64,000 nt of DNA from Parcubacteria group bacterium (GCA_016186325.1 JACPLW010000002.1:1485-65484); one strand, 5' to 3'; shown: positions 6,209 through 46,596, numbered from the stretch's first letter. Notes: generated by a model not told the origin, from the letters alone. Numbers and translations: made by a program.

Positions 6209-6394
6209 CTTTCCCTCCTTTTGGGCTTTTCTTAAGTTTTTTATTTATTTTAAAACTGATATAAAAGAGCTGATAAATATCATTTATCCCAGGAATGTTG
6301 GAAACCGAGCTTCCAACATGATAGATAACATTTATCAGGTCTTTTTAAAAATTTTCCCGCCTTTGGCGGGATCAGCCTCGGGCTGAAAAAATTT

Positions 6395-6425
6395 GGGGCG
6401 GCGAGACCGAGTGTCTCGCCGCCCC
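6395..6425 (-). terminator. intrinsic terminator of GC-rich gene 6453-7508
   Basis: GGGGCGGCGAGAC-CGAGT-GTCTCGCCGCCCC followed on the minus strand by CCAAATTTTTTC. Confidence 0.6.
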
Positions 6426-6452
6426 GCCGCCCCCGCCAATTGCGAAGGGTTA

Positions 6453-7508
6453 TTACTTCTTGCCGCGAGCGCGGTCGCGCTTCCAGTCGGAACTCTTATG
6501 AGTTCCGAACTCAGCGCCGAAGGTGCGCCGGTTCGCGGCGCCGCCTTCCAGCGAGCGCGCCTGGCTGACGCGCCCGGCGCTCTCCGCCTCACGCTTGACC
6601 ACGAGGCGAAGCCCCGCGACCGTATAGAACGTGAGAACTGCCCGCCGCTCCACCCAGTCAGGGTGGTCTTGCGGCAGATCCTTGCGGGCCCGGAAGTCCT
6701 CGAGGGCCTCCGAGCGGCACGTGCCGCAGCAGCGAATGCCGTAGGCGAGCGTCTTGCCCGCCTCCTCGATCTTGACCACTCCCGGAGGGATTTCTCCCGG
6801 AGGGATTTCCCACGGGAAGTTCTCCGCGTCGGCGCGGAGAAGCTCGCCGGCGACGATGTCGCCGCCGTCGCCCTTGCCGTGCTGACGGCGGTGAAGCTTG
6901 CCATCGTCTCCCCGCTCGAGGAGGAAACGCTGGGTCAGCTCCACCGGCTCGTTGTAACCGCGATGCCGCGGAGTGGCGCACGGCATCTTCTTGCCGGCCA
7001 CGAGCGGATCGGGATCCGGCTGCTCGGCGACCAGCTCCGCGATCGCCGCCTTCTCCGCGGCCAGCTCGGAAAGATAGTGCCTGAACATGGACCGGGTGAT
7101 CTCCACCCCGTCCTTGGCCTCGGCAGCAAACCGCTGCCGAATCCCACGGACCGTCGCCTGGCCCTTGTAGAGCCCGGCGTCCCAGTCCGCCTGCATCTCG
7201 CTGTCGAAGAGCAGCCGGTCGTCGTTGGCCGGCCTGCTGCTGCCGTCCTTCTCGGCCTTCTCGCGCTTGCCGCGCGAGATGATCTCGGCCGTCGCAGCCT
7301 CGATCTCAGCCACGGTCACGTCGGCCGGCATCCGCGGCTTGACCACCTCCGAGGCGGCCCACACCGCGAAACCGAGCGACCACCCCTGCTTCTCGGCGAT
7401 ACGCTTGAGCGCCTCGATGACGCCCTGCTGGCTGAACCGCTTCTTGTCATCCGCTGCTACAACTATCTTCCTGGGCTTGGCCATGATTGGCCTCCGTTGT
7501 CCCGCCAA
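6453..7508 (-). CDS. hypothetical protein (GC-rich island gene, no recognisable family)
   Basis: 351-aa ORF; SD ACGGAGG 7 nt before ATG; strongly GC-rich unlike its flanks; tandem 15-bp duplication encodes PGEIPPGEIP; own consensus promoter and terminator. Confidence 0.5.
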   Translation of the reverse strand: MAGQRRPIMAKPRKIVVAADDKKRFSQQGVIEALKRIAEKQGWSLGFAVWAASEVVKPRMPADVTVAEIEAATAEIISRGKREKAEKDGSSRPANDDRLLFDSEMQADWDAGLYKGQATVRGIRQRFAAEAKDGVEITRSMFRHYLSELAAEKAAIAELVAEQPDPDPLVAGKKMPCATPRHRGYNEPVELTQRFLLERGDDGKLHRRQHGKGDGGDIVAGELLRADAENFPWEIPPGEIPPGVVKIEEAGKTLAYGIRCCGTCRSEALEDFRARKDLPQDHPDWVERRAVLTFYTVAGLRLVVKREAESAGRVSQARSLEGGAANRRTFGAEFGTHKSSDWKRDRARGKK

Positions 7509-7594
7509 AGGCAGGGACTTTTGTATTGGTTGTCGCTCTTGAGGGCCGTTATTGGCCTCTTGAGCTTAAACCCTGTTTAGGAACTATTAACCAC

Positions 7595-7622
7595 ATTATA
7601 TCAAATATACAGAATATGTCAA
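7595..7622 (-). promoter_or_regulatory. consensus sigma70 promoter (TTGACA-16-TATAAT) driving GC-rich gene 6453-7508
   Basis: Minus strand reads TTGACAtattctgtatatttgaTATAAT. Confidence 0.6.
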
Positions 7623-7648
7623 GTACCTACTTATGCCGGCAGGTAGGC

Positions 7649-7677
7649 TTGACAATATAGCTAAAAAGGCGTACTAT
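7649..7677 (+). promoter_or_regulatory. sigma70-like promoter (TTGACA-17-TACTAT) for the NUDIX gene, divergent from the previous promoter
   Basis: TTGACAatatagctaaaaaggcgTACTAT; the two divergent -35 boxes sit in an inverted repeat TGTCAAGTACCTAC / GTAGGCTTGACA. Confidence 0.5.
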
Positions 7678-7799
7678 AAAAACAATCCGAGCACCTGCTT
7701 TCGCTCGTCGTCGGCGGATCGTGTTTCGCCGAAGCCGAGCTTCAGCGAGGCGAAGGCGGGGAAGATTCTTTGACAACAATAATAAACAAGGAAGAGGCG

Positions 7800-8533: not shown

Positions 8534-9142
8534 ATGGGAGAGCAAAAGTTCGTCAGAATGTTTGGCCGACCCGAAATCCACATTACCGCCTGCGCTGTTA
8601 CCAGAGATCGGGATTTCAACAATGTTATTAGCGACATTATTATTGAGACCAACCAGTTTTGGGACAGATATCCTCCTCATCATGAAAGAGCGTTGCTTAA
8701 AATGTATCAACAGAACCCGGGAAAGAACCTGATTTGTAACGATAGTACTCAAACCCTAAGAATCCCGATGTTGTTTTTGGGCAATAATTCCAACGATGGC
8801 TGGGGAGAATTGCAATTCCTTATTAAAGCGCCGAGATTGGTGAGACTAGCCCGTCACCGCTGTTTTGATACCAGGGTCAATCAATGGGTTCCAGAAACTA
8901 AACTGATCCAGCCAAAAACCAATATGGAAACCCACGCTTATCTGGCCCTGCGGTTTTACCACAATAGTTATCTGCCGCCGAAGATGCCGAAAACGCGGCG
9001 ATGGTACTTTGAGCCGGTATATGTGTCAATAAGAAATTCGGATTTTTACAAAATTGATGTTTTGTGGGAAAAGGAAAAAATCAAGATTACGGTAACCGTA
9101 TTAGACAAAAATTCGCCCGAAATTCCGAAACATTTGAGGTAA
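8534..9142 (+). CDS. hypothetical protein
   Basis: SD AGGAGGG 4 nt before ATG 8534; about 203 aa; no recognisable motif. Confidence 0.55.
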   Translation: MGEQKFVRMFGRPEIHITACAVTRDRDFNNVISDIIIETNQFWDRYPPHHERALLKMYQQNPGKNLICNDSTQTLRIPMLFLGNNSNDGWGELQFLIKAPRLVRLARHRCFDTRVNQWVPETKLIQPKTNMETHAYLALRFYHNSYLPPKMPKTRRWYFEPVYVSIRNSDFYKIDVLWEKEKIKITVTVLDKNSPEIPKHLR

Positions 9143-9182: not shown

Positions 9183-10418
9183 TTAAACTTTTTCTTCTTT
9201 CCCGCCCGTCATTGCCTGCGCCTGCCCGCCAGTCGCTGATGCTCCAGGCATCTGCAGGCGGGGCTCAGACTGCTCACGGACAGGCAAAAGACCCAAACTC
9301 ATCCGGTGTTCATCGGGAATAAAAGTTAAAACTTGAAATTTATATTTTTTGCCCGCTTCAAGCGCGGCTTTCATTTTATCGCCTGTGCCAAACTCCGAAA
9401 TATGACAAAGTCCTTGCAAAGATTCGTTATCCGGACAAACCACCTCAACAAAAGCGCCAAATGGATTAAACTTTTTAACCAGACCTTCAACTGTTTTGCC
9501 TTTTTCAAAATGAGGAATGGCCACTTTCCAAGGATCGGGCTTTAACCGCTTTAAAGACAGAGAAATCCTGTCATTGGTGATGTCAATAATCTGGGCAGAA
9601 ACATCATCACCGACTTTCACAAAATCAGCCGGATTTTCTATTAATTGCCAATCAAGTTCGGAAATGTGAATTAGCCCTTCGAGCTTGTCTTCACCAGCGG
9701 GCTTGCCCTCCGTAACCACGCTTTGCGGGGTGAAGGAGGACCATTTTATAAACGCGCCCCAATCAACAATGCCGGAAATCTCACCTTTGACAATATCGCC
9801 TATTTGATAATGGCCGATGGCCTCTTTAAAGTTTTCTTCTTCGGCCGCTTTTTCCGAAACAATCAGTTTGCCTTCTTTAGAATCAAAGTCTAAAACGCGC
9901 ACCTTAAAGTCACAGCCTATGAATTTTAACAGCTCTTCTAATATCTTTGTTTTGTCTCCGCCCTCAACCCGCGGGTAATGTTCGTTTGAGAGCTGACTAA
10001 CCGGAAGAAATCCGGCAACGCCGCTGATTTCAATCATCAGTCCGCCGCGATTGGCGTTAATTATTTTTGTGACAACTGCTTTATTTGTCTTTTTCAGTTC
10101 ACGAATCAAATCCCATGATTTCTGACTTTGAGCTTCCGCGAGAGACAACTCTCTTAAACCGGCCTCATTTTCGACTTCCACAATTTTGGCAAAAACACTA
10201 TCGCCGATTTTCAGGTTCTTTATTATGTTTTGGGCATTGGCAAATTCTATGCCGTAAACAATGCCAATACCGAAAATGCCAAGATCAATATATAAATTCT
10301 TGGCGGTTTTATTTAGCACTCTTCCTTCAATTACCTCGCCGGCCTTGGGCATGTTAAATGCTTTTGGCAGTTTGGCCAGAAGATTTTGCATATTTAAAAT
10401 TCCTATTTGAGCTTCCAT
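9183..10418 (-). CDS. rpsA: 30S ribosomal protein S1 (four S1 domains)
   Basis: 411 aa with repeated S1 OB-fold signatures (GxV.G.V..I...GaFV); GC-rich C-terminal tail. Confidence 0.8.
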   Translation of the reverse strand: MEAQIGILNMQNLLAKLPKAFNMPKAGEVIEGRVLNKTAKNLYIDLGIFGIGIVYGIEFANAQNIIKNLKIGDSVFAKIVEVENEAGLRELSLAEAQSQKSWDLIRELKKTNKAVVTKIINANRGGLMIEISGVAGFLPVSQLSNEHYPRVEGGDKTKILEELLKFIGCDFKVRVLDFDSKEGKLIVSEKAAEEENFKEAIGHYQIGDIVKGEISGIVDWGAFIKWSSFTPQSVVTEGKPAGEDKLEGLIHISELDWQLIENPADFVKVGDDVSAQIIDITNDRISLSLKRLKPDPWKVAIPHFEKGKTVEGLVKKFNPFGAFVEVVCPDNESLQGLCHISEFGTGDKMKAALEAGKKYKFQVLTFIPDEHRMSLGLLPVREQSEPRLQMPGASATGGQAQAMTGGKEEKV

Positions 10419-11506: not shown

Positions 11507-14044
11507 ATGACTAAAAAAATAATCACAAACTCTAAAGAAACCCCTAAAAACGAAAGAGATTCGCAAAACTTAAACTTATCCGCAAAGGGTGGGGGAGAAA
11601 CGGGCTACGTAAAACCGCGGGAAATCGTCCGCGAGATGGAAGATTCGTATCTTGAGTACGCGATGTCGGTTATTATTTCCCGCGCTCTTCCCGATGTCAG
11701 AGACGGACTAAAGCCGGTTCACCGCCGGATTCTTTATGCCATGCACGATCTGGGCCTGACCCATCAGGCAAAATTCCGCAAATCGGCTCTTGTTGTCGGC
11801 GAGGTTTTGGGTAAATATCATCCGCACGGCGATATTTCGGTTTACGACGCCTTAACCCGGTTGGCGCAGGACTTTTCTTTGCGTTACCCGCTGGTAAACG
11901 GACAAGGTAATTTCGGAAGCATTGACGCCGACGCGCCGGCGGCGATGCGTTACACGGAGGCGCGGCTTACTTCGCTCGCCGAGGAAATGCTAAAAGACAT
12001 AGATAAAAACACTGTAGATTTTATTGATAATTATGACGCCACCCGCAAAGAGCCAAAAGTTCTTCCGGCCGCTGTTCCCCAGCTTCTTTTAAACGGCACC
12101 GTGGGTATAGCCGTAGGTATGGCTACAAATATTCCGCCCCATAATCTTGGGGAGATAATTGACGCTACTTGCCAACTTATTAAACATCCTAAAAGTTCGG
12201 TTGAAGACCTTTTGGAATTCGTAAAGGGTCCCGACTTTCCGACCGGCGGCATTATTTATTCCAAAAAAGATATTGCCGCCGCTTACGCCACCGGTAGGGG
12301 GCCTATTATCGCCCGCGGCGTAGCCGAAGCGGTTGAGGATAAAAAAGGCCGCGCTCAAATAATAATTACCGAAATTCCGTATCAGGTAAATAAATCAACC
12401 CTTCTTGAAAAAATTGCCGAGCTTGTCAGCGAGAAAAAAATTGACGGTATCCGCGACTTACGCGACGAATCGGACAGGGAGGGCATGAGAATTGTCATTG
12501 AGCTCAAAAGCGACGCCGCGCCGCAAAAGATTTTGAATAACCTCTACAAGCACACCGATCTTCAAAAAACTTTCCACTTAAACATGCTGGCTTTAGTTGA
12601 CGAAATCCAACCGCAAGTTCTTTCGCTTAAGGCCGTTTTGGAATATTACCTAAAACACCGAGAAGAAGTGGTGGTGCGTCGCGTAAAATACGATTTGGTA
12701 AAAGCGCAAGAGCGAGCGCATATATTAGAGGGCTTAAAAAAAGCGCTTGATTCAATTGATGAAGTAATTAAGGTTATAAAGAAATCGCAAGACAGGAGCG
12801 AGGCCTTAAAAAATCTTATAAACAGGTTCAAACTCACGGAAATTCAGGGGAGCGCTATTTTGGAAATGAAACTTGCCACTCTAGCCAATCTTGAAAGAAA
12901 AAAGATTGAAGATGAACTTATTGAAAAGGTAAAATTGATTAAAGAATTGACCCTTATTTTAAAAAGCCGCGAAAAAATACTGGAAATAATTTATCAAGAG
13001 CTTCAGGCAATAAAAGAAAAATATAACGACCAGAGAAAAACGAAAGTTATGGCCTCGTCTCTGGGCGAATTCAGAGAAGAAGATTTGGTACCGCTTGAAG
13101 AAGCTGTCGTAGTCTTAACCGAATCCGGATACATTAAAAGAATGAATCCCTCTCTAGTCCGCTCACAGCATCGCGGCGGCAAGGGCATGACCGGAATGTC
13201 TACAAAAGAAGAGGACGCTGTCACCCACTTTGTTTCAGCAAAAACCCACGATAACGTTTTGTTCTTCACCAACACCGGCCGCGTTTTCCAAACTAAGGTC
13301 TGGGAAATTCCGGAGGCCAGCCGGCAATCGCGCGGCAAAGCCGCAGTAAACTTTTTGGCCTTGAGCGGCGATGAAAGAGTTAACGCGATTCTGACATACA
13401 ACGAAAAACAGCTAAAGGAGAAGGGCACTGAAAAGTTCTTGGTGATGGCAACCAAGAGCGGACTAGTCAAAAAAACACCGATCGCCGACTTCGGTTCGGT
13501 TCGTCATTCCGGCCTCATTGCCATAAAACTTAAGAAGGGCGACTCTCTCAAGTGGGTAAAAGGCTCTTCGGGCGAAGACCAAATAATTTTTGTAACTATG
13601 CTCGGGCAAGCGATAAGATTTTCGGAAAAAGACGCGCGGCCATTGGGGCGGGCGACAGCCGGAATGCATGGCATCCGCCTGCATCAGGGCGACGAAGTTG
13701 TCAGCATGGATGTAATAACCGCCTCGGCCGCAAAAGACCAAAACACCAAATTCTTGGTGATTATGGAAAACGGTTTCGGCAAAAAAACATTCATTAAATT
13801 TTACAAAAAACAAAACCGGGGCGGTTCCGGCGTTAAAACCGCTAAAGTTACCCCTAAGACCGGAAAAATCGTTTCGGCGTTCATTATAGGACCAGACACT
13901 AAGGAAATGATTGCCATTTCAAAAAAAGGCGTAGTAATCCGCCTTGATCTTGAGTCAATTTCAACCGTTTCACGTGTAACCCAAGGCGTCCGTATAATGA
14001 GAGTTGAAGCGGGAGATAAAGTAGTTTCAGCAACGTTGTTGTAG
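11507..14044 (+). CDS. gyrA: DNA gyrase subunit A
   Basis: 845 aa; [37 protein letters not shown]; full-length GyrA with C-terminal beta-pinwheel repeats. Confidence 0.95.
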
Positions 14045-14185
14045 CGACTTTACCATAGGAACTATTCTGCAGTGATCATATAGTGTATTTCAAAAGTTAC
14101 AACTTAAGAACCGATCGGAAATTAAGTTGTTAAAAATTTAAATTATGTCAAAACCTATAAAAGTTAAAAAGACATTAAAATAATT

Positions 14186-14213
14186 GAGGGCCCTCGCATT
14201 GCGCGGGGGCCCT
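14186..14213. terminator. bidirectional terminator (GGGCCC stem) after gyrA and after GC-rich gene 14224-14715
   Basis: AGGGCCCTCGCATTGCGCGGGGGCCCT followed by T-rich tracts on both strands. Confidence 0.55.
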
Positions 14214-14223
14214 TATATTTATT

Positions 14224-14715
14224 TCACCTGAGTCGCTTCTGGCAGCAACCCAGATCCCCCATCCATCCGCACGACGTGCGGAGATGGGCGATCCTACTGC
14301 TGCTCGTCACCCTGGGAGGAGACTCCATGGTGATGAACGGCACCGGCTCGACTGCCGCCGGCTTCCGTGGAGGAAGAGCGACGAGCTTGACGCTCACCAG
14401 CCGGCGCGGCCTCTCCTTCCTGGGCAGTGCCCAAGAATGGTGGCCGTTCGAAACTGCGTCCGCGGCCACACCAGCGAAGGTTGCGCCGTGCGCAACCTCC
14501 TCGAGGATTTCGCGGCGCTCCTTGCCCTGACGGTTGTAACCGCAGAGCAACTTGAACGGATCGGAACTATCGAGATTAAGGATAGACCCACGACGCGTGA
14601 TGCCGCGTGAGGCCTTACTCCCGATGAGTTTCGCATCTCCTCGCCGCCGCCGTCTCGTGTCCAGGCGGCGGTTGTTGCCGTCGTCGTAGGTGTTCCTGAA
14701 CCGCCCAAATTGCAT
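14224..14715 (-). CDS. hypothetical protein (GC-rich island gene)
   Basis: 163 aa; strong SD GAAGGAGGAGG 5 nt before ATG; Arg-rich; no recognisable family. Confidence 0.45.
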   Translation of the reverse strand: MQFGRFRNTYDDGNNRRLDTRRRRRGDAKLIGSKASRGITRRGSILNLDSSDPFKLLCGYNRQGKERREILEEVAHGATFAGVAADAVSNGHHSWALPRKERPRRLVSVKLVALPPRKPAAVEPVPFITMESPPRVTSSSRIAHLRTSCGWMGDLGCCQKRLR

Positions 14716-14750
14716 CTTCGCCTCCTCCTTCTTCTTTATTTAAAAAAACA

Positions 14751-14773
14751 GGGGGGGGTCGAACCGCCCCCCT
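14751..14773 (-). terminator. intrinsic terminator between the two GC-rich genes
   Basis: Minus strand GGGGGGCGGTTCGACCCCCCCC followed by TGTTTTTTT. Confidence 0.6.
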
Positions 14774-14779
14774 CGGATC

Positions 14780-15034
14780 CTAGACGACGACGCGCTTCGC
14801 GCTCGACGCGTGGAGCTCGTCGAGCGCCGCCTGGGTGAGGTTCTTGCGGACCCACATGTGGGCTCCGCAGAAGAGCGGCCGCACGCCCGGACGGCGCGCC
14901 TTCGTCGCGCGCTCGCCGCCGTTGCCCCGCTTCTGACGGCGGGGGTTGTCGCAATCGGCGACGCGGCACGACGCCTTGAAATGCGCGAGCCACTCTTCGC
15001 GAGGTGGAATGACGGCCACGATTTCGTAGCCCAT
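14780..15034 (-). CDS. hypothetical protein (GC-rich island gene)
   Basis: 84 aa; SD AAAGGAGAGAGG before ATG; Cys/His-containing. Confidence 0.45.
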   Translation of the reverse strand: MGYEIVAVIPPREEWLAHFKASCRVADCDNPRRQKRGNGGERATKARRPGVRPLFCGAHMWVRKNLTQAALDELHASSAKRVVV

Positions 15035-15109
15035 GGTCCTCTCTCCTTTTGCCCCGCAACTGCAGGGCTTGTAAGAGTTTCGTGAAAGAACGGTTAACTA
15101 TGCTTAATT

Positions 15110-15138
15110 ATTATAATCTATATTCAACAATTTGTCAA
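15110..15138 (-). promoter_or_regulatory. perfect consensus sigma70 promoter (TTGACA-17-TATAAT) for GC-rich genes 15034-14224
   Basis: Minus strand reads TTGACAaattgttgaatatagatTATAAT; the ~70-nt leader contains the family-A motif CCCTGCAGTTGCGGGG. Confidence 0.65.
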
Positions 15139-15172
15139 TACCGCGCCCAATGTGCTAAAATAGGCAACATAT

Positions 15173-25162: not shown

Positions 25163-25834
25163 ATGCGTAATGATAAGCATATTGCTATAAAATTAAGAAA
25201 GCAAGGGAAAAGTTACAGTAAGATAAGCAAAGAGTTGAACGTGCCTAAAAGCACGTTGTCTGCTTGGCTTTCGGATATAAATTGGTCTAGGTTTATAAAA
25301 ATTGGTCTTACGAGAAGAGCTAATTATATTGCTAGAAAACGATTACGATCATACAATAAAAAACAGAAAATATTTTGGGAAGCGTGGCGAGCACAGGCAA
25401 GACAACAAGCTCGCAGTAGCTTTCCGAAACTTAAGTCAAATCCTCTCTTTATATCAGGAATAATGATTTATTGGGGCGAAGGTGATAGTAAAATAGAAAA
25501 TTCCAACGTCAGGATATCAAACACTAATCCAGATATGATCAGGGTTTTTAATTTATTTTTGCGGATAATTTGTAAGGTCCCAAAAGAAAAAATAAAAATG
25601 GCAATGATTTTATACCCTGATCTCAATGAAATCAAATGTAAAAATTTTTGGAGTAAGACTTCTGGTGTGCCTAAGGGTCAATTTATAAAAACTCAATTTA
25701 TCAGGGGTAAACATCCTACCAAAAGATTGACTCACGGAATTGCTTTAGTATACTACCCTAGTAGAGAACTAAAAGAAAAAATATTCGTCTGGATTGAGCT
25801 TTTCCACAAACAATTTCCGCTCATGCGGGTGTAG
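25163..25834 (+). CDS. HTH-domain protein, possible LAGLIDADG-like nuclease; paralog of 31894-32562
   Basis: N-terminal HTH LRKQGKSYSKISKELNVPKSTLSAWL; central IMIYWGEGDSK resembles a LAGLIDADG-type motif; 3' end overlaps tRNA-Gly. Confidence 0.5.
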   Translation: MRNDKHIAIKLRKQGKSYSKISKELNVPKSTLSAWLSDINWSRFIKIGLTRRANYIARKRLRSYNKKQKIFWEAWRAQARQQARSSFPKLKSNPLFISGIMIYWGEGDSKIENSNVRISNTNPDMIRVFNLFLRIICKVPKEKIKMAMILYPDLNEIKCKNFWSKTSGVPKGQFIKTQFIRGKHPTKRLTHGIALVYYPSRELKEKIFVWIELFHKQFPLMRV

Positions 25835-31893: not shown

Positions 31894-32562
31894 TTAAATT
31901 ATTTCTGCAATTTTCATTAACTCATTAAATATATCTGCAGAAAAATAATCAATTCTGCAAACACCCTTATAATCCAATTTTTTGGATGGCCTCCCTAATG
32001 TTCTTGGATCTATTTGTGCTTTATAAAATTTTTTAAGAGGAATTCCTGTTGTTTTAGACCAAAATTTTTCTAGAGTTTTTATATCTTGGTCGGCTCTACA
32101 TTGTAAGGTGCATCGAAATTTATTTTCATCAATATTATAACAGCGTCGTAATAATCGTAAAAATAAGCTAATTACTTTTGGATCAGAGTTCCCGAAAACT
32201 ACGGAACAATTCGATTTTTTTCCTTCGCCCATATATAGCATTGCGACAACGATTTTAGCAATATTTTTATCTTCAATAAGTTTTTTAAGATGCCAAACGC
32301 GATCAGATACTAATTTTAAGTACTGTTCTCGTTTTTTTCTGTTTGTCGCCAAAGCCAATTTTCGACTTCTATTAACATTATCTATGACCCGATTTTTTAA
32401 TACTTGTTTTTGATCTTCAGACAATACAATATTTTTAAACCAAACTGATAACGTACTCTTGGAAATTGGATGATTTAATTTATTCTGAATTTCACCGTAT
32501 GTTTTTCCATTTTTTCGCAACAATACGGCTTTATTTTTTAAGTGGTAGTATCTTGATTTCAT
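31894..32562 (-). CDS. HTH-domain protein, possible LAGLIDADG-like nuclease; paralog of 25163-25834
   Basis: N-terminal HTH LRKNGKTYGEIQNKL..KSTLSVWF; AMLYMGEGKK; FWSKTTGIP shared with the paralog. Confidence 0.5.
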   Translation of the reverse strand: MKSRYYHLKNKAVLLRKNGKTYGEIQNKLNHPISKSTLSVWFKNIVLSEDQKQVLKNRVIDNVNRSRKLALATNRKKREQYLKLVSDRVWHLKKLIEDKNIAKIVVAMLYMGEGKKSNCSVVFGNSDPKVISLFLRLLRRCYNIDENKFRCTLQCRADQDIKTLEKFWSKTTGIPLKKFYKAQIDPRTLGRPSKKLDYKGVCRIDYFSADIFNELMKIAEII

Positions 32563-35761: not shown

Positions 35762-35889
35762 ACAGGCAGAACATTAAGATTCATTAAACGTACTCCGAGC
35801 GCGAAAACTGATCTGGCACGCGAGAGGGCGCGGCGGATTGGCTAGTAGATAAGACTTGGGGGAATAACATCCATAAAGGAGGTGATTTC

Positions 35890-36180
35890 ATGGATAAACG
35901 GCACTGCTACCTTTCAGTAGCAGGCTGGCGCTACCCGCGTCATACCATCATTGATGGAAATGTCATCATGATGGAAGTGGCGATGGGAAGCTGCCAACAC
36001 TGTCCTACTTGCTCTCGGCGAGTAGAGATGGTGTCATCTCGGCTTCGGGGTACCAACTCCAAGTGGAGTTGGGAGGGGTTCGGTAACGGACTTTACCTCA
36101 AAGTCGAGATGCCCGATGACGCTGAACAAGTAGAACAATACTTGTCTCGGCTAATCGGAGTCTCTGTCTGGCTCAGATAG
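35890..36180 (+). CDS. hypothetical protein (GC-rich island ORF 1)
   Basis: 96 aa; SD AAGGAGGTGA 4 nt before ATG; CxxC..C motif. Confidence 0.45.
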   Translation: MDKRHCYLSVAGWRYPRHTIIDGNVIMMEVAMGSCQHCPTCSRRVEMVSSRLRGTNSKWSWEGFGNGLYLKVEMPDDAEQVEQYLSRLIGVSVWLR

Positions 36181-36352
36181 CTAGACAGAAAGCCAGTACC
36201 GGCGTCGGAGTGGAACCGACGTGACAACAGAAGGCTCGACTGACCCTCCACCAGTCGGACCAAACCAAGAGACGATTCCATATGCCGAGTCCGGTCGGCT
36301 TATCCCAGGAATCTCTCGGGGCGCGCGGCTGCCTTCAAAAGAAAACCGCAAT

Positions 36353-36418
36353 GGTCGAGCAAAAAACCGCTCGACCTCCCACCAAAGTTTTTGAAGCTTT
36401 CGAAAATTTTGGTGGGGG
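36353..36418 (+). repeat. family-B structured module, copy 1
   Basis: GGTCGAGC..GCTCGACC hairpin, then CCCACCAAAGTTT..AAATTTTGGTGGG arms with a G.U pair on the plus strand. Confidence 0.6.
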
Positions 36419-36474
36419 AATAATGAAAGTTCTTTAATCAAGAAATAAAAAAGAAGAGGGGGTGAGGCCTTATT

Positions 36475-36717
36475 GTGGTGAAATTCATCGTTACATGCGA
36501 TTGGATTGTCTTCGGAGATCGTCCTTTTGGCGGCGACATGCACACAGATGTCGCTCGCCGAAACGGCATCCCGAAAACATCCGTCCGGGGCGGTGGACTC
36601 TCCGATCTGACAGAGCGCCGGATATTTGGGACATCGTATGGTTTCGGATCATACGATCCCGAAGCAATCCGAGCGCTTCTGCCAGATTGGCAGATCGCCG
36701 AGCCCTCTGACTACTAG
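36475..36717 (+). CDS. hypothetical protein (GC-rich island ORF 2, GTG start)
   Basis: 80 aa; SD AAGAAGAGGGGGTGAGG 7 nt upstream of GTG. Confidence 0.4.
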   Translation: MVKFIVTCDWIVFGDRPFGGDMHTDVARRNGIPKTSVRGGGLSDLTERRIFGTSYGFGSYDPEAIRALLPDWQIAEPSDY

Positions 36718-36747
36718 AACAAATCCAAAATGGAAGGAGGTGAGTGC

Positions 36748-36882
36748 ATGGTAGAGGACATGGAGTTTTTCTTCGAGGAAGACGACATCGACATCTCCTT
36801 CGAGGAACTCGGACTCTGCCCCCACTGCGGAGCGGCAGATGACGAGGGATGTGAGGGTAGTTGCCCCAGCTTTCTGGAGTAA
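36748..36882 (+). CDS. small acidic Cys-rich peptide (44 aa)
   Basis: SD GGAGGTGA 5 nt before ATG; MVEDMEFFFEEDDIDISFEELGLCPHCGAADDEGCEGSCPSFLE. Confidence 0.4.
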   Translation: MVEDMEFFFEEDDIDISFEELGLCPHCGAADDEGCEGSCPSFLE

Positions 36883-37026
36883 CTGCCTCACTAACCCCAT
36901 CCATCGGGGATATAGGTGGAGTAGTCGGAGCCTGCGGTGTCCGACGAAAAACTCTGATGCAATGTTAGAGCGGCTAAAAAGCCGAATCAGGCTAGGAGAG
37001 TCCATAGAAACGGCAAAACTCTCCAC

Positions 37027-37107
37027 GGGTCGAGTGAAAAAAGAAATCTCGACCTCCTACCAAAGTTCTCAAAAAGTATTTTGAAAATTTTGGTAGTTTA
37101 TTTTTTT
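37027..37107 (+). terminator. family-B module copy 2 acting as intrinsic terminator
   Basis: GGGTCGAG..CTCGACC hairpin, then CTACCAAAG..TTTGGTAG stem followed by TTTATTTTTTT. Confidence 0.6.
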
Positions 37108-37242
37108 CTCTTTTTTAAGTGTTTGAAAAATTCGATTTGCCGCAATCGTTTTTTTGCTTCGGCAAGAGTTTTGTATGAACCGAAAGAACGGCCGGTAGTT
37201 TCTGATAAAACAACATACTTGCCTTTTATTTTTTTAATCATG

Positions 37243-37315
37243 GGGTGCCTAACGGGATTCGAACCCGTTCTTAGACTGCCACAGAGTCTAGTGCTGCCAT
37301 TACACCATAGGCACC
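37243..37315 (-). tRNA. tRNA-His (anticodon GUG)
   Basis: Acceptor GGTGCCT/AGGCACC; anticodon loop CTGTGGC; T-arm CGGGT TCGAATC CCGTT; no encoded G-1 seen. Confidence 0.6.
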
Positions 37316-37632: not shown

Positions 37633-37694
37633 AAAATGAATTTAATGCTAATTATAACTAATATATACCATAAAATTTCAATTATTACAATAAC

Positions 37695-37723
37695 TTGACA
37701 AGATTAGAGTTATTTGGTATAAT
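37695..37723 (+). promoter_or_regulatory. perfect consensus sigma70 promoter (TTGACA-17-TATAAT)
   Basis: TTGACAagattagagttatttggTATAAT; SD AGGAGAAG follows; drives 37762-37968. Confidence 0.7.
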
Positions 37724-37761
37724 TTAAATGCAGGATGTAAATTTCTCAGTAGGAGAAGAAA

Positions 37762-37968
37762 ATGCAGATCAGGAAGCAGTTGAGGCGGATGGCCAACGCG
37801 GCTAACGCGATCGCGGCGGGTCGCGAAAGGCCGATCACCCCGGAGCCAAACGGGTACGCCGGCGAGCATCACCGGATTCGCCACAAGTCCAACAAGGGAC
37901 CGCGGATGCGCGGTTCCGGGACCGCGCCGCGCCGCACGAAGAAGAAGGGTGGTGGCGCCGGCCAGTAG
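37762..37968 (+). CDS. small highly basic protein (GC-rich, hypothetical)
   Basis: 68 aa rich in R/K/G; perfect promoter, strong SD and strong terminator. Confidence 0.55.
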   Translation: MQIRKQLRRMANAANAIAAGRERPITPEPNGYAGEHHRIRHKSNKGPRMRGSGTAPRRTKKKGGGAGQ

Positions 37969-37987
37969 CCGGCGCCCCACACGCCTT

Positions 37988-38040
37988 GGAGCGATTCGTC
38001 CGTCAGTCGACGGACGGACTCGCTCCGGGGCGCTTTTTTT
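37988..38040 (+). terminator. intrinsic terminator
   Basis: GGAGCGATTCGTCCGTC..GACGGACGGACTCGCTCC hairpin then GGGGCGCTTTTTTT. Confidence 0.65.
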
Positions 38041-39883: not shown

Positions 39884-39957
39884 AGGGCCCATAGTTAAGT
39901 GGTATAACGGCGCATTCGCATTGCGTAAGCGGGAGTTCGATTCTCCCTGGGTCCACC
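39884..39957 (+). tRNA. tRNA-Ala (anticodon CGC), nested inside the split tRNA-Ala locus
   Basis: Acceptor GGGCCCA/TGGGTCC with G3.U70; anticodon loop TTCGCAT; CCA encoded; flanked by 15-bp inverted repeats CGATAACCTTGGTGG / CCACCAAGGTTATCG. Confidence 0.8.
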
Positions 39958-39972
39958 AAGGTTATCGGGACA

Positions 39973-40009
39973 TTGACGAAACGGCGGTCCGATTCCGCCT
40001 AGGTCCACC
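39973..40009 (+). tRNA. split tRNA-Ala, 3' half (3' anticodon stem, T-arm, acceptor, CCA)
   Basis: TGACG AAAC GGCGG TCCGATT CCGCC TAGGTCC A CCA; acceptor complements 39528-39534 including G3.U70. Confidence 0.55.
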
Positions 40010-40111
40010 AAACAGGAAATTGCAAGCAAGAGGGAGTCGCCTTGCCCGTCTCGCTCCCGCGCTCCGCGCGGAAAAATGGTGGCGCAATTCTTGAACAAGC
40101 CCTAAGAGGCT

Positions 40112-40136
40112 ATTTTGTTTTCTAAGAAAACAAAAT
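40112..40136 (+). terminator. hairpin terminator
   Basis: ATTTTGTTTTC-TAA-GAAAACAAAAT. Confidence 0.5.
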
Positions 40137-40145
40137 TCAAATAAT

Positions 40146-40212
40146 GACAAGGTTTTGGGCATAATTATTGAGGTTTTAGGCCATATTTTTGATTATGCCC
40201 AAAACCTTGACA
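40146..40212. promoter_or_regulatory. 21-bp inverted repeat overlapping the -35 box (candidate operator)
   Basis: TGACAAGGTTTTGGGCATAAT ..25 nt.. ATTATGCCCAAAACCTTGACA. Confidence 0.5.
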
Positions 40213-40235
40213 AACTGACGTAAATTTGCTATAAT
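40207..40235 (+). promoter_or_regulatory. perfect consensus sigma70 promoter (TTGACA-17-TATAAT)
   Basis: TTGACAaactgacgtaaatttgcTATAAT; ~215-nt leader to SD AAGGAGGAG. Confidence 0.7.
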
Positions 40236-40456
40236 AAAGATATAAAAATTGATGTAGTTTTAGATCAATTTTTGCTCTTGTTCTTTGCAAATTTGCGAGC
40301 GAATCTCCTTGAGATTTTGAAATGAGCAGCGCATTGAGTGGCTGAAACACCACTTGTTGCGCTAACAGATATTTAATGCACTGCTTATAACGAGTTAGAC
40401 CTCGTCGTGGTCGTGTAGGACACACGATTCAAAATCGCAAACCAAAGGAGGAGCCG

Positions 40457-41133
40457 ATGGAAGTAGGAGTGCTGTTCTCAAGCGACGGCATTCTGGCGCT
40501 AAACAAACCGCCCGGGATGTGCAGTCAGGGACCCAAGACTTCGGATATCCCGGAGTTGTGGGAACTGCTACGAACACACCACCCTGGCGGTCATGTCGCT
40601 CATCGGATCGATCAGTACACATCTGGTATCAATCTAGCTGGTGCTTCAAAACGGCAGATCAGTTATCTGATGCGTAACTGGCACCAGATCACGCGAAAGA
40701 ACTACCTGTCTGTCTCATCAACAACCCGACGTGGAGCGAGAAGGTTGTGGACACGCCCCTCAAGGGTAAGTCCGCAATCACTGCGTTCACGGTGCTTGAG
40801 CGTTCTGGATCGTTGGCGTTGATTCAATGCCAGCTAGTCCAAAACGGGCGGACTCATCAAATCCGGCGACACCTGAAGTCGATCGGTGCACCGATCGTCG
40901 GAGACCGAAAGTACAAGGGTCCGACAACCAGGGTGCGGTCTGGTCAACTGCTTCATGCGTGGCGCATGGAGGTCAGACTGCCGGACGATTCTGGTAAGCC
41001 CGGCCCTTGGATTACCATTCAGGCGCCGATCCCCAACGATTTCAAGCAGATCAACTTCGATTGGAGTCGCTGGGATGCCAACGCCAACACAACGCTGGAG
41101 ATCTGGGCAGTTCCCTCCGGTTGGCGACACTAA
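40457..41133 (+). pseudogene. RluA-family pseudouridine synthase, frameshifted (GC-rich)
   Basis: Frame 1 carries HRIDQYTSGINLAG (RluA catalytic Asp motif); frame 2 (40747-41133) carries the RluA C-terminal half (GRTHQIRRHL..GDRKY); frames overlap around 40747-40822. Confidence 0.65.
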
Positions 41134-41151
41134 CTCGCCCCTCTCAACTCA

Positions 41152-41194
41152 AAAGGCCCCCGTGGTAGCAACATCACCACGCGGGGCCTTTTTC
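41152..41194 (+). terminator. strong intrinsic terminator
   Basis: AAAGGCCCCCGTGGT..ACCACGCGGGGCCTTTTTC. Confidence 0.7.
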
Positions 41195-41213
41195 ATTTTT
41201 ACAAAGAACTTTT

Positions 41214-41301: not shown

Positions 41302-41334
41302 TGTTTCACGTGAAACATTGTTTGACGTGAAACA
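41302..41334. promoter_or_regulatory. tandem 16-bp operator-like palindromes TGTTTCACGTGAAACA / TGTTTGACGTGAAACA
   Basis: Two adjacent copies ~45 nt upstream of the HIT gene; the same motif pair recurs at 42963-43002. Confidence 0.6.
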
Positions 41335-41389
41335 ATGTAATTGTTAATCTTCAACTCAAAGAAATTGGACTTTAAAATTGGGGGAAAAC

Positions 41390-42001
41390 ATGAATAGCAA
41401 TTGTGTTTTCTGCGACCGAACCAAGATTGAGGAGCGTATTATTGCCGAAACGGAAGATTGGTACTTAATAGCTACCATTGGCCAAATAACAGAAGGCGGC
41501 TATGTTCTCATAATCCCCAAGCGGCATGTACCTTGCGCCGGAGCGATGAAAGAGCAAGAGATTGTTAAAATGGACGACATATCGCGCATTGCAAGCGATT
41601 ACACAGAGGTAGAGTACGGCGTAAGACCTATCATCTTTGAACATGGCATTGTGGGCCAGACGATTCAACATGCCCATCTTCATCTTTTACCCGCCCGGAT
41701 TCGCATGTGCGGCAGAATCTATCGGGATTTTCCCAACGCGCAGATCTGCTTCTTAGATTCGCTCAAACTGCTTCGATGGACTTATGATGCAATGGGAGGA
41801 AAAAAGTATCTCCTTTGGAGCACCCCGGAAAACCTGTTGAAGACCGTTATTGATCCGCCAGCGCCGTTGCAATATTTACGGCTAATTGCAGCCGAACTTG
41901 TTGGCCATCCGGAGCGCGCAAATTGGCGCGATTGTGATCCTGAAACCGACAAAAAACTGTGGCAGGAGACCGTTAGCCGCCTTAAGCCATATTTTTCATG
42001 A
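41390..42001 (+). CDS. HIT-family (histidine triad-like) hydrolase
   Basis: IIPKRHV and QHAHLHLLP histidine-triad-like motifs; SD TGGGGGAAAAC before ATG 41390. Confidence 0.55.
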   Translation: MNSNCVFCDRTKIEERIIAETEDWYLIATIGQITEGGYVLIIPKRHVPCAGAMKEQEIVKMDDISRIASDYTEVEYGVRPIIFEHGIVGQTIQHAHLHLLPARIRMCGRIYRDFPNAQICFLDSLKLLRWTYDAMGGKKYLLWSTPENLLKTVIDPPAPLQYLRLIAAELVGHPERANWRDCDPETDKKLWQETVSRLKPYFS

Positions 42002-42031
42002 ATTTTAAAAAAATAACCCGAATAGCAAGCG

Positions 42032-42850
42032 CTATTCTGGGTTTTTTAATTTTTTATTCCTTAATAACAGGCGTATTTTGTACATTTTATCTTCATATTC
42101 CGCTTGAAAAACCTCATGAAGATAAAATCCTAAAGAAACAAGTTGAATTATCAGAAGAATAATACCTGTATAAAGGTAAAAATTGTTTTTCCATATTATG
42201 CCGGCTAAATAGAAAATCATGCTGAAAGCGGTAAGACCGGTGTGAAACCGCGCCCCGATCGTCGTTACTAAGTCATTTAGCAGAAATTCTTGCATAAACT
42301 CAAAATACAGCTGATCCCGCCTTTCGCGACGCTTTTCTCGCTGATAAAGCCACGTACCCAGCAAAATCAAAAACATACATGTTGCAGTGACTAGTAGAAT
42401 CGTGTTCATAATAAATAATGCCGGCCATCCAAACGATTTTGTCGCGTAAATGCTTAAAAATATCATCCATAAGATAAGTAAAAAATCTCTGGTATGATCC
42501 AAGAGAGTCCCCAAAGCTGTAACTTCATTGTTATTTCTCGCGACTGGGCCGTCTAAAAGATCGGTAATCCACGCAAAAGCTAAAAGCCATACTTGACGCC
42601 CAACATCATCCCCAAAATAAAACAGATCAAAAATCGCCCAAATAAGAACAACGAATCCCACCACGGTTAAATGATTTGCTCTTATTCCTATGGCTGCAAA
42701 AATATCGGTTATTTTTGTCCGCTTAAAGAACCGGTCGCGCCACTTTTTCTCAAGCGGTGTCCAATATCCCTCCTTCGTTAAAGCTTCCGCTGACGCCAAG
42801 GCTTTGGCGGACAAGTCGGCGGGCAAGCTCTCTTTTTCCTCTTCGGCCAT
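42032..42850 (-). CDS. CDP-alcohol phosphatidyltransferase family membrane protein
   Basis: DLLDGPVARNNNEVTALGTLLDHTRDFLL matches D-G-x2-A-R-x8-G-x3-D-x3-D; multiple TM helices. Confidence 0.6.
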   Translation of the reverse strand: MAEEEKESLPADLSAKALASAEALTKEGYWTPLEKKWRDRFFKRTKITDIFAAIGIRANHLTVVGFVVLIWAIFDLFYFGDDVGRQVWLLAFAWITDLLDGPVARNNNEVTALGTLLDHTRDFLLILWMIFLSIYATKSFGWPALFIMNTILLVTATCMFLILLGTWLYQREKRRERRDQLYFEFMQEFLLNDLVTTIGARFHTGLTAFSMIFYLAGIIWKNNFYLYTGIILLIIQLVSLGFYLHEVFQAEYEDKMYKIRLLLRNKKLKNPE

Positions 42851-42962
42851 TATTGTCCCTCCAAGTTTTTAAGGGTCTGATTTTTAATAAAAGAGTAAAC
42901 GAAATGTGAAAAAAAATCAATCTGCCAGCTGGTAAATTGATTTTTTTTCACCACAAATGATA

Positions 42963-43002
42963 TGTTTCACGTGTAACATTTGATAATGTTACACGTGAAA
43001 CA
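42963..43002. promoter_or_regulatory. second pair of TGTTTCACGTGNAACA operator-like palindromes
   Basis: TGTTTCACGTGTAACA and TGTTACACGTGAAACA, mutually reverse-complementary, between divergent genes 42850(-) and 43003(+). Confidence 0.6.
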
Positions 43003-43407
43003 ATGACCACCGAGAAACAAAACATAGGAAGATTAGGTGAAGATATTGCCGTAAAATACCTTGAAAACAAAGGTTATAGCATTTTAACTCGCAATTATCG
43101 CAAGCCATGGGGCGAAATTGACGTAATCGCATCGGAAAACGTTGGTAAAAACCAGTTCTTGGCTCTAAAGAGCCAAGAACTGGTTTTTTTTGAAGTCAAA
43201 ACCCAAAACCAAAGATTTGAATGGCGGCCGGAAGAAAATATAACAAGACATAAAAAACACCAATTATCAAGAATTGTCGCAACTTACATGAAAGAACATG
43301 AAATTTCAGAAAGTCAAGATTGGAGAATTGACGTTTTGGCAATAAAACTAGACTTTGAAACAAAAAATGCTCAAATTGAGCACATCAAAAACATTGCTCT
43401 AAATTAA
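43003..43407 (+). CDS. YraN/UPF0102 family endonuclease
   Basis: GEDIAVKYLENKGYSILTRNYR..GEIDVIA..VFFEVKT. Confidence 0.8.
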   Translation: MTTEKQNIGRLGEDIAVKYLENKGYSILTRNYRKPWGEIDVIASENVGKNQFLALKSQELVFFEVKTQNQRFEWRPEENITRHKKHQLSRIVATYMKEHEISESQDWRIDVLAIKLDFETKNAQIEHIKNIALN

Positions 43408-43590: not shown

Positions 43591-44826
43591 ATGGGAAAGA
43601 AAACGCAACGTTTAGTTGAATTAGCCCATAAGCACTTGCCCAGAAATTACGCTCCACCGGATGATCTTGTTTTAAGAAGAGGACATGGCTGTTATCTTGA
43701 AGACGTTAATGGTAATACCTACCTTGATATGCTTTCTTGCTATTCTGCCGCAAACTCCGGTTACGGCAATAAATCGGCAAATACGGCAATATTACGGCAA
43801 ATTGCCAAAGGTATTTTGTGCAACGCCAATTGTTTCTGGGAAGAGCAGAAAATTCTTTTTGCCCATGACTTGGCCAAATTCTGCAACGATTTTGGCTTAA
43901 ACGGACTTGATGTAGTTTTACCTATGAATAGCGGCGCCGAAGCGGTTGAAACGGCTATAAAAATAGCGCGTAAATGGCGTTACTGTTATTTAGCAAAAGG
44001 TATTGCCTATGACACAGCAGAAATTATTTGCTGCGAAAACAACTTTCATGGCAGAACTCTCGGCGCTATTAGCATGTCAACAGTAGATCAATATAAAAAA
44101 TACTTTGGTCCGCTAATCCCAGGCATAAAAATCGTTCCTTTCGGTAATGTAGACGCTTTAAAAAAGACAATTAATAACAATACAGCCGCATTTTTAGTTG
44201 AACCGATACAAGGCGAGGGCGGAGTTATTATCCCGCCCAATGACTACCTTTCCGAAGTAAGGAAAATTTGCGATGAACAAAATGTTTTATTTATTTTGGA
44301 TGAAATCCAGAGCGGTTTTGGCCGAACCGGTAGAATGTTTGCCTGCAACTACGATAATGTTGTTCCGGATATGATAATTTTGGGCAAGGCCTTGGGCGGC
44401 GGACTTCCGATTTCCGCGGTTGTCGGCAAAGAAGAGATAATGGATGTTCTTGATCCGGGAGATCACGGTTCTACATTTGGCGGCAATCCTTTGGCTTGCG
44501 CCGCGGCGCGGGCCTCGCTAAGTTTTATGCGGCGCCGTCGGCCGGATAGGCGAGCGGCTGAATTAGGGTTTTACTTTAAAAATAAGCTTAACAAGGTGGC
44601 GGCGCAAAGTCCGCACATTAAAGAAATAAGAGCACTTGGTCTTTGGATTGGCATTGAAGTTCACCATAGCGGCCCAACGGCTCATGAATTTTGCAAAGAG
44701 CTTTATAAAGAGAAAATACTCTGCAAAGAAACTAGAGAATATACCATTCGCATGAGCCCGCCCCTTACAATCACTAGAAAAGAGCTTGATTTTGCGCTTT
44801 CAAAAATCCAAAAAGTTTTTACATAA
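43591..44826 (+). CDS. class-III aminotransferase (ornithine/acetylornithine aminotransferase-like)
   Basis: ILDEIQSGFGRTGRMFA PLP-lysine region; GGGLPISAV. Confidence 0.85.
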   Translation: MGKKTQRLVELAHKHLPRNYAPPDDLVLRRGHGCYLEDVNGNTYLDMLSCYSAANSGYGNKSANTAILRQIAKGILCNANCFWEEQKILFAHDLAKFCNDFGLNGLDVVLPMNSGAEAVETAIKIARKWRYCYLAKGIAYDTAEIICCENNFHGRTLGAISMSTVDQYKKYFGPLIPGIKIVPFGNVDALKKTINNNTAAFLVEPIQGEGGVIIPPNDYLSEVRKICDEQNVLFILDEIQSGFGRTGRMFACNYDNVVPDMIILGKALGGGLPISAVVGKEEIMDVLDPGDHGSTFGGNPLACAAARASLSFMRRRRPDRRAAELGFYFKNKLNKVAAQSPHIKEIRALGLWIGIEVHHSGPTAHEFCKELYKEKILCKETREYTIRMSPPLTITRKELDFALSKIQKVFT

Positions 44827-45699: not shown

Positions 45700-46596
45700 T
45701 TATTTTCTCTGTTTTCCGTGAAAAGCGTTGTGGACTTCTCTTAATTTTTTATCGGTTATGTGGGTGTAAATTTGAGTCGTGGTTATATTTGAGTGTCCCA
45801 AAAGTTCCTGAACCGAGCGGATATCGGCGCCATTCATTAAAAGATCTGTGGCAAACGAGTGGCGCAAAGTATGGGGCGTGACTTTTTTTGAAAGCCCGGC
45901 TTTAGCCGCATAATGCTTCATCAACCGTTCAACACTTCGGCTTGTCAACCGCAGATTATCGGTCTTGGCCGGATTTTTTGTTTGCCTGATGAAAAGTGCC
46001 TCGTCAACGTCCTCTCGTCTTTCCAAATAGTTTTTTAGCGCTTCTTTGGCGGTATCGGAGATGAAAACCAGGCGGACTTTATCTCCTTTGCCGCGCACCG
46101 AAAACTCGCCGGATTTAAGGTTGACCGAATCGCGGTTTAAATTGCAAAGTTCAGAAACCCGCAGTCCGGTGGAAAATAATAGTTCCAAGATAGCTTTATC
46201 ACGAGCGTTGGTTGGAGATGTTAGTAGGCGCTCAATTTCGTTCCCTTCAAGGAAAGATACCTGCCTCTCCGATTGTTTCCCCAGCTCAATTTTGTCGGCC
46301 GGCATAACCTTGAAATCCCGCCGTGCCAGATATTTTAAAAAATTCCTAAGCCCTATTAAATAATAATTCTGGGTGATCTTTTTAAGCCCTCTTCCGTCCT
46401 GATTTGCCTGCCGGTTCAGCCAAAGACGGTATTGCCTGACCATTTCCGGTGTGATTTGTTCCGGTTTTAAAACCTTAGAAAACTCAAAGAATTTTTTTAA
46501 ATACCGTTCGTAATTCACCCGCGTTTTAATTGACCGGTTTTTTTCTATTTCCAGATAATCCAAATAGTCTTTTAGCAATTCGCCTATGTTTGTCAT
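45700..46596 (-). CDS. tyrosine site-specific recombinase (XerC/XerD-like)
   Basis: RHSFATDLLMNGADIRSVQELLGHSNITTTQIYTHI with catalytic R..H..Y. Confidence 0.85.
   Translation of the reverse strand: MTNIGELLKDYLDYLEIEKNRSIKTRVNYERYLKKFFEFSKVLKPEQITPEMVRQYRLWLNRQANQDGRGLKKITQNYYLIGLRNFLKYLARRDFKVMPADKIELGKQSERQVSFLEGNEIERLLTSPTNARDKAILELLFSTGLRVSELCNLNRDSVNLKSGEFSVRGKGDKVRLVFISDTAKEALKNYLERREDVDEALFIRQTKNPAKTDNLRLTSRSVERLMKHYAAKAGLSKKVTPHTLRHSFATDLLMNGADIRSVQELLGHSNITTTQIYTHITDKKLREVHNAFHGKQRK

Follow-up and report, generated by a model that had tools for sequence, protein, structure and literature searches.

Four nearly identical 16-bp palindromes lie within 1.7 kb of one another in a 64-kb stretch of DNA (hereafter called the window) from a member of the Parcubacteria group, and their presence raises the question of which protein recognizes them and what purpose they serve. 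A preliminary description of this DNA had presented them as two tandem pairs of operators for a dimeric or tetrameric repressor. The four sites, which we designate parS-1 to parS-4 in anticipation of their identification, are found exactly at the positions given there, and no strand is assigned to any of them. The first, parS-1 (positions 41302–41317), is the perfect palindrome TGTTTCACGTGAAACA; parS-2 (41319–41334; TGTTTGACGTGAAACA) follows 1 bp after it and carries the single deviation C6G. In the second pair, parS-3 (42963–42978; TGTTTCACGTGTAACA) deviates by A12T and parS-4 (42987–43002; TGTTACACGTGAAACA) by T5A, the latter being the exact reverse complement of the former. Together parS-3 and parS-4 form a composite palindrome of 40 bp (42963–43002) with 18-bp arms and a 4-nt centre. 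Measured from centre to centre, the two sites of pair 1 are 17 bp apart and those of pair 2 are 24 bp apart. The dyads are near-identical, as had been claimed, with no more than one mismatch to TGTTTCACGTGAAACA in any of the four.

The occurrence of these sites is far above chance. When the 64-kb window was searched for the 16-mer at ≤3 mismatches, 5 matches were obtained vs. 0.31 expected, a number that was reached in 0 of 100 shuffles; for the 14-bp core at ≤1 mismatch, the corresponding values were 5 and 0.00. The half-site GTTTCAC is not enriched outside the full sites (9 observed vs. 6.9 ± 2.8 expected); the four full sites account for five of the nine half-sites, and a site in gyrA, which is considered below, for one more. 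The setting is chromosomal, as evidenced by the presence of gyrA, rpsO, pnp and 15 tRNA genes in the window.

The motif is already known and is not a new regulatory box. A match at all 16 positions was observed between parS-1 and the parS consensus TGTTNCACGTGAAACA, while parS-2, parS-3 and parS-4 each differ from it at one position. This consensus, which is bound by ParB/Spo0J, is listed for B. subtilis and C. glutamicum; the consensus reported for Hyphomonas neptunium, TGTTTCACGTGAAACA, is the identical 16-mer, and close variants are given for Streptococcus, Mycobacterium, Caulobacter, Vibrio, Pseudomonas, Deinococcus and Thermus (PMC7022226, Table 1). The parS site of V. cholerae chrI is NGTTNCACGTGAAACN. 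A full-text search of the literature for the core string pointed in the same direction, with the ParB/parS centromere predominating among the matches listed. Since the match is a perfect one to the most widespread bacterial centromere, a coincidental resemblance is very unlikely. We consider it highly probable that the four palindromes are chromosomal parS sites, i.e., the centromere-like loading sites for ParB of a ParABS system, in a Parcubacteria genome related to Azambacteria. Boxes of the LacI, DeoR/GlpR, FabR, Rex, TyrR and LexA types were also compared with the palindrome; none of them matches, and the identity as parS makes these candidates moot.

To relate the 16-mer to genuine parB genes, we used a control set consisting of the best 80 metagenomic loci by closeness to B. 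subtilis Spo0J, each anchored on parB and covering 4 kb to either side. The query was a ParB alignment of the B. subtilis, M. xanthus and T. thermophilus sequences from PDB matches. These best 80 loci are Firmicutes-like and none is CPR-like. The 16-mer was present at ≤1 mismatch in 39 of the 80 parB-anchored loci, amounting to 71 sites of which 40 were exact, and shuffled sequences yielded 0. The box that the preliminary description had left without a name is, on the strength of the consensus match and of these parB-linked copies elsewhere, the canonical chromosomal parS. In the control loci, 21 of 43 pairs of neighbouring parS sites were ≤100 bp apart, typically by 31–54 bp, so that an arrangement in tandem pairs is nothing unusual for parS. 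The two pairs in the window, at 17 and 24 bp, are nonetheless tighter than all 43 control pairs, for which the minimum is 31 bp; this observation counts against the parS reading, and the two sites of a pair might not both be bound at once.

The repeat analysis revealed that the two pairs have only the 16-mer in common and that their flanks are unrelated, and further copies of the 16-mer or of its core were not found in the 64-kb window beyond the gyrA site. The sites are thus not part of a longer repeat unrelated to promoters, a result that, according to the preliminary description, would have refuted the operator reading, and there are no dispersed copies. The composite palindromes do have considerable potential for secondary structure: as single-stranded DNA, hairpins of −19.6 kcal/mol (pair 2) and −13.2 kcal/mol were predicted (z = −7.8 and −4.9), and a terminator scan flags 43002–42963. 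These values would be in keeping with a structural element such as a cruciform, a terminator or a 5′-UTR RNA hairpin, or with a variant of this explanation in which the sites are copies of a REP/MITE-like repeat. However, the two divergent genes next to pair 2 both have it on their upstream side, where there is nothing to terminate, and the relatives that possess a single site retain the 16-mer without the long pair-2 hairpin. It is the exact sequence that has been conserved in them and not merely the ability to pair, and the repeat itself is reduced to the 16-mer core between unrelated flanks, which argues against the REP/MITE variant. A search of Rfam at a permissive threshold detected no RNA family at the sites. 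An explanation by structure or by a mobile repeat is, in our judgement, extremely improbable.

The identities of the genes around the parS cluster were confirmed with Pfam. Downstream of pair 1 is a HIT-family hydrolase gene on the + strand (41390–42001; PF01230, E = 4e-8), and a CDP-alcohol phosphatidyltransferase gene is located between the pairs on the − strand (42032–42850; PF01066, E = 6e-12). On the other side of pair 2 is yraN (UPF0102; 43003–43407, + strand; PF02021, E = 2e-22), at the 5′ end of which the parS cluster has its conserved anchor in this lineage, followed by a class-III aminotransferase gene (43591–44826, + strand; Pfam). The placement of pair 1 upstream of the HIT gene and of pair 2 between the divergent transferase and yraN genes was therefore correctly described. 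Two details require amendment. First, parS-4 had been said to overlap the start codon of yraN; the last base of the site is 43002 and the first of the ATG is 43003, which makes the two adjacent without overlap. Second, the two pairs had been thought to flank three genes; only the HIT and transferase genes are bracketed, and yraN is just outside pair 2.

The YraN and GyrA proteins encoded in the window are 100% identical to those of a Parcubacteria-group MAG, with Candidatus Azambacteria as the nearest relatives, and our comparative set consisted of 16 yraN-anchored loci and 4 gyrA-anchored loci of this lineage. A parS site at ≤2 mismatches precedes the yraN start by 16–41 bp in L001/L006, L003, L004, L005, L007, L008, L009 and L015, the last being a Patescibacteria genome whose YraN shares no more than 43% identity. 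In L007, yraN is preceded by the mirror-image pair seen as parS-3/parS-4 in the window, and degenerate remnants of parS, for example TGTTCCACGTGAAAAT, occupy the same spot in L002, L010, L012 and L013. When the regions upstream of yraN were aligned, the parS next to the ATG was the only conserved block, the remaining spacer being unalignable, and the gene upstream of the parS-yraN junction varied, including the CDP-OH transferase, ornithine carbamoyltransferase (OTCase), an MJ0043_C-domain protein and small ORFs. A comparison with relatives had been suggested along with the original description, and its outcome is that parS is retained upstream of yraN while the flanks diverge. Upstream of HIT, pair 1 has been conserved in L001/L006 and L008; L007 has retained just the second of its sites. 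The G variant of parS-2 is shared by L001/L006 and L007, and L008 shows variation at both sites of pair 1. An additional site between the HIT and transferase genes is present in L001/L006 and L008. Such variation in the number and position of sites among relatives is as expected for parS turnover. That the spelling is perfect or within one mismatch in many diverged genomes, despite scrambled flanks, is indicative of purifying selection on the 16-mer and on canonical ParB specificity.

These comparisons also bear on the proposal of a small regulon, made up of the HIT, CDP-alcohol phosphatidyltransferase and yraN genes, under a dimeric or tetrameric transcription factor of its own, in which case the likeness to parS would be a coincidence. 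The sites are indeed intergenic, promoter-proximal, palindromic, arranged in tandem pairs and conserved, all of which would suit an operator, yet the perfect 16/16 agreement with parS speaks against such a factor. A nearby regulator gene, which the preliminary description had recommended looking for, was searched for in the window and in the relatives and none is linked to the sites: Pfam analysis found no DNA-binding gene adjacent to them in the window, and among the relatives a TrmB-family gene is nearby only in L001. Nor is there a stable regulon. The neighbours of the site vary in L002–L005, with HIT and CDP-OH absent or replaced near the site in L002, L003 and L005; no stable set of targets was found across the relatives, in which yraN alone keeps the site, and no further copies are present at other promoters in the 64 kb. 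We consider a dedicated factor highly improbable, and the claim of a repressor with a small regulon finds no support, as no regulator is linked and the site persists next to changing neighbours. The interpretation of the dyads survives in part. Judged by their sequence, they would be conserved sites for HTH dimers in promoter-proximal, intergenic positions; the role known for such sites is, however, chromosome segregation and condensin loading, not control of transcription.

A different form of regulation would be compatible with the parS identity, namely that ParB bound at these sites also represses the HIT and yraN promoters locally and that the placement at yraN was selected for this purpose. 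A putative sigma-70-type HIT promoter (41322–41350, + strand) has its −35 element TTGACG (41322–41327) inside parS-2, separated by a 17-nt spacer, the proper distance, from a conserved extended −10 element consisting of TGT and TAATCT (41342–41350). The deviation C6G in parS-2 is precisely what creates this −35 hexamer, and the upstream block TTTGACGTGAAACA...AATTGTTAATCTT was found by alignment to be conserved across 4 genomes. At the other pair, parS-4 abuts the yraN ATG and leaves no room for a leader, and the juxtaposition of parS and yraN persists across relatives even at 43% YraN identity. There is precedent for such an effect, as ParB of P. aeruginosa represses the adjacent genes PA0011 and PA0013 from the intergenic sites parS3 and parS4, and the plasmid protein KorB is a global repressor. 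On the other hand, loss of Spo0J in B. subtilis leaves the expression of the genes adjoining parS unchanged, and few effects were seen in V. cholerae and S. pneumoniae. The promoters themselves are inferred: a simple promoter scan did not flag the putative HIT promoter, the −10 element of which matches at 3/6 positions only, and the promoter-like matches in the region equal the shuffle expectation without any excess. Furthermore, the linkage of parS to yraN needs no selection, since breakpoints rarely fall within a gap of 0–40 bp.

Local repression of this kind, with selection on the position at yraN, is accordingly put forward as a tentative possibility that we think somewhat unlikely, while a dampening of the HIT and yraN promoters as a side effect, with bound ParB hindering RNA polymerase, is possible. 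A more elaborate proposal for this lineage of ultra-small genomes would be that ParB occludes the HIT −35 element from parS-2 and the yraN initiation region from parS-4, so that expression of YraN (a predicted nuclease) and of the HIT hydrolase is coupled to ParB occupancy or to CTP status, and that the parS-yraN junction was selected for this coupling; we find this doubtful. In the extreme variant, the lineage may have no canonical ParB and another protein may read parS.

A possible fifth parS, which was missed in the preliminary description, is situated at 13966–13981 (CGTTTCACGTGTAACC; no strand assigned), within gyrA and close to the 3′ end of that gene. It has the same 14-bp core as parS-3, and the two other mismatches are at poorly constrained outer positions. 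The peptide encoded by this site, TVSRVT, is invariant among the relatives compared. L097, the closest relative (92% GyrA identity), has the parS spelling as well, which has been lost via synonymous codons in L098–L100 (81–83% GyrA identity). As a parS, the gyrA-internal site is thus at best a recent addition.

Genes for the proteins that would act at these sites were searched for by tblastn, and neither the 64-kb window nor the 16 yraN loci and 4 gyrA loci yielded parB, parA or dnaA; Pfam likewise revealed no ParB domain in 29 ORFs from the window. The Spo0J probe shows full identity with PDB 6SDK across residues 21–218, and the probes were validated in the 80 control loci, where Spo0J matched in 80 and Soj in 72 and where a dnaA was recovered with the DnaA probe. 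With the probes validated in this manner, the absences of parB, parA and dnaA are genuine within the sampled DNA. Any parAB operon of the host genome must lie at least 21–41 kb from the cluster, which counts against the parS reading. No cluster of DnaA boxes was found in the window, and the GC skew has no clear minimum over the 64 kb. The gene gyrA lies 27 kb from the cluster.

These results raise the alternative that the sites are relics or have been re-used, canonical ParB having been lost and the sites now decaying or being bound by another protein. The failure to find parB or parA in about 64 kb and 20 related loci would be consistent with such a loss, as would the degenerate sites in the more distant relatives L010–L013, and some lineages with reduced genomes, e.g., Mycoplasmataceae, lack par genes. 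Only a small fraction of any genome was sampled, however, and a parS need not adjoin parB. The perfect or one-mismatch spelling in many diverged genomes, in the face of scrambled flanks, is also difficult to reconcile with decay, and the retention of the canonical spelling speaks for the existence of a ParB with standard specificity in the lineage. We therefore regard a relic or re-used parS as very unlikely.

If the four palindromes are functional parS sites, their mode of action may be outlined from established knowledge of the ParB family, as set out in PMC7022226. Each 16-bp site would bind one ParB dimer through the HTH domains. At parS, ParB together with CTP would form a closed clamp that leaves the site and slides onto the flanking DNA, and repeated loading would build a partition complex spanning several kb. 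This complex would be moved by ParA, if present, and would load SMC condensin. The arrangement of four sites as two back-to-back pairs in 1.7 kb should provide a higher loading rate and robustness to the loss of a site. For the host of the present sequence, we infer ParB binding, spreading and proximity to the origin.

The identification has practical consequences. Since the box is the universal ParB centromere, it is to be removed from searches for new regulons. The cluster marks a segregation locus, probably in the origin-proximal domain, and can help to orient or check fragmented MAG assemblies. Retention of parS would imply that ParB-dependent segregation and condensin loading have been kept in very small genomes, a matter on which we found no discussion in the literature searched. 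Through the overlap with promoters, an action of ParB on adjacent genes could be tested at little cost. Some interest remains beyond the motif itself, in that a CPR lineage has kept parS, that the site holds a fixed place next to the start of yraN, that its copies are paired unusually closely and that they overlap two putative promoters.

In comparison with the chromosomal parS sites of B. subtilis, C. glutamicum, H. neptunium and V. cholerae, the sites of the window are alike in being 16-bp palindromes that are identical or within one mismatch, and in occurring as several clustered copies per chromosome in intergenic or coding DNA. They differ in that many of the known sites adjoin parB, whereas the present cluster has no parAB or dnaA within the 21–41 kb of the window on either side, nor do its counterparts in the relatives within ±10 kb. 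The host is also unlike the known parS hosts, being one of the uncultivated Parcubacteria, and no description of ParABS in CPR/Patescibacteria was found in the literature searched. The tandem parS arrays of the Firmicutes-like control loci (e.g., L048, L075 and L094) resemble those of the window in having 2–4 near-perfect copies of the 16-mer at short, regular intervals; these arrays, however, have periods of 31–54 bp and a parB within 4 kb, while the sites of the window are almost contiguous and far from parB. The parS3 and parS4 sites of P. aeruginosa are genuine centromere sites in promoter regions with a geometry like that of parS-2 relative to the HIT −35 element and of parS-4 relative to the yraN start; repression was measured there, whereas here it is deduced from position, and the genes are different. 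Lastly, the Noc-binding site NBS (ATTTCCCGGGAAAT) and the KorB operator OB (TTTAGCSGCTAAA) are comparable in being palindromes of 16 bp or 13 bp that are bound by CTP-dependent clamps of the ParB fold, KorB being a transcriptional repressor; they differ in sequence, and it is parS, rather than NBS or OB, that the sites of the window match.

A 16-bp sequence resembling parS, the palindromic site bound by ParB, was identified inside gyrA (11507–14044, forward strand) at window positions 13966–13981. This sequence, CGTTTCACGTGTAACC, shares its 14-bp core with parS-3, one of the two sites between the CDP-alcohol phosphatidyltransferase gene and yraN, and in GyrA it specifies the peptide TVSRVT, which is invariant. 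L097, the closest of the four related loci anchored on gyrA, has the same parS spelling as the window, whereas synonymous changes have removed it from the other three (L098–L100). The gyrA site may be a recent fifth parS or, alternatively, the product of chance codon choice.

Among the related loci anchored on yraN, L001 and L006 both carry a segment of approximately 46 bp on either side of the CDP-alcohol phosphatidyltransferase gene, the two copies being inverted relative to each other (positions 9000–9060 and 10000–10060 in both loci). The center of this segment is a perfect parS. The copy upstream of yraN appears to have inserted into a former parS-like sequence (TGTTACA...GTGCAACA). The inverted segments may reflect either a duplication of parS or recombination between parS sites. 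In another of these loci, L002, direct and inverted CATTACCGAAAC-like repeats are densely arrayed at 9890–9960, directly upstream of a degenerate parS and yraN.

The coding sequence of the window yraN itself contains an inverted repeat without mismatches (43147–43188), its 20-bp arms separated by 2 nt, which coincides with an 11-residue in-frame insertion (the ENVGKNQFLALK region) that is missing from YraN orthologs of 123 amino acids. This looks like a small palindromic insertion that has been tolerated in frame.

Just upstream of the first parS pair, an RluA-type pseudouridine synthase (40457–41133) is divided between two overlapping reading frames, with the N-terminal part at 40457–40822 and the C-terminal part at 40747–41133 each matching PF00849. 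Intact PseudoU_synth_2 genes found elsewhere in relatives encode proteins of 236–326 amino acids. The split reading frame indicates that the gene is a pseudogene with a frameshift, or else that an error arose in sequencing.

Six GC-rich islands were observed in the window (6300–7700, 14100–15150, 35800–37250, 37650–38030, 39950–41200 and 60250–61500), with 50–62% GC versus about 36–45% in their surroundings. No credible ORFs were found in them, and a search against Rfam gave no match, even at E ≤ 0.01. Their longest ORFs had no match in Pfam except for the pseudouridine synthase fragments in 39950–41200, and comparison of the islands with one another revealed essentially no similarity. Possible explanations are non-coding RNAs with a defined structure, foreign genes that have decayed, or chimeras from the assembly.

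Two paralogous proteins of approximately 222 amino acids each are encoded at 25163–25834 (forward strand) and 31894–32562 (reverse strand), the first directly adjoining the gene for tRNA-Gly (25825) and the second that for tRNA-Ala (31810). Both proteins begin with a similar, HTH-like N-terminus; the product of 25163–25834, the one paralog scanned with Pfam, matched HTH_23/homeodomain-like. A similar HTH_23 gene is also present in L100. The pair may be mobile-element remnants or a homing-endonuclease-like gene.

Next to yraN, the gene for the xerC/D-like recombinase carries parS-like sequences toward its 3′ end in L002 (10516–10531 and 10767–10782), L005 (10595–10610) and L012 (10797–10812). 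The orthologous stretch of the window (approximately 45710–45730, peptide AFHGKQ) is degenerate. L002 has a second spelling, TGTTTCACGGGAAACA, within this gene. The L012 site, CGTTTCCCGTGAAACT, is weaker, with three mismatches to the parS consensus and two to the Thermus type, while the sequence common to L002 and L005, TGTTTCCCGTGAAACG, differs at a single position from the Thermus-type parS, TGTTTCCCGTGAAACA.
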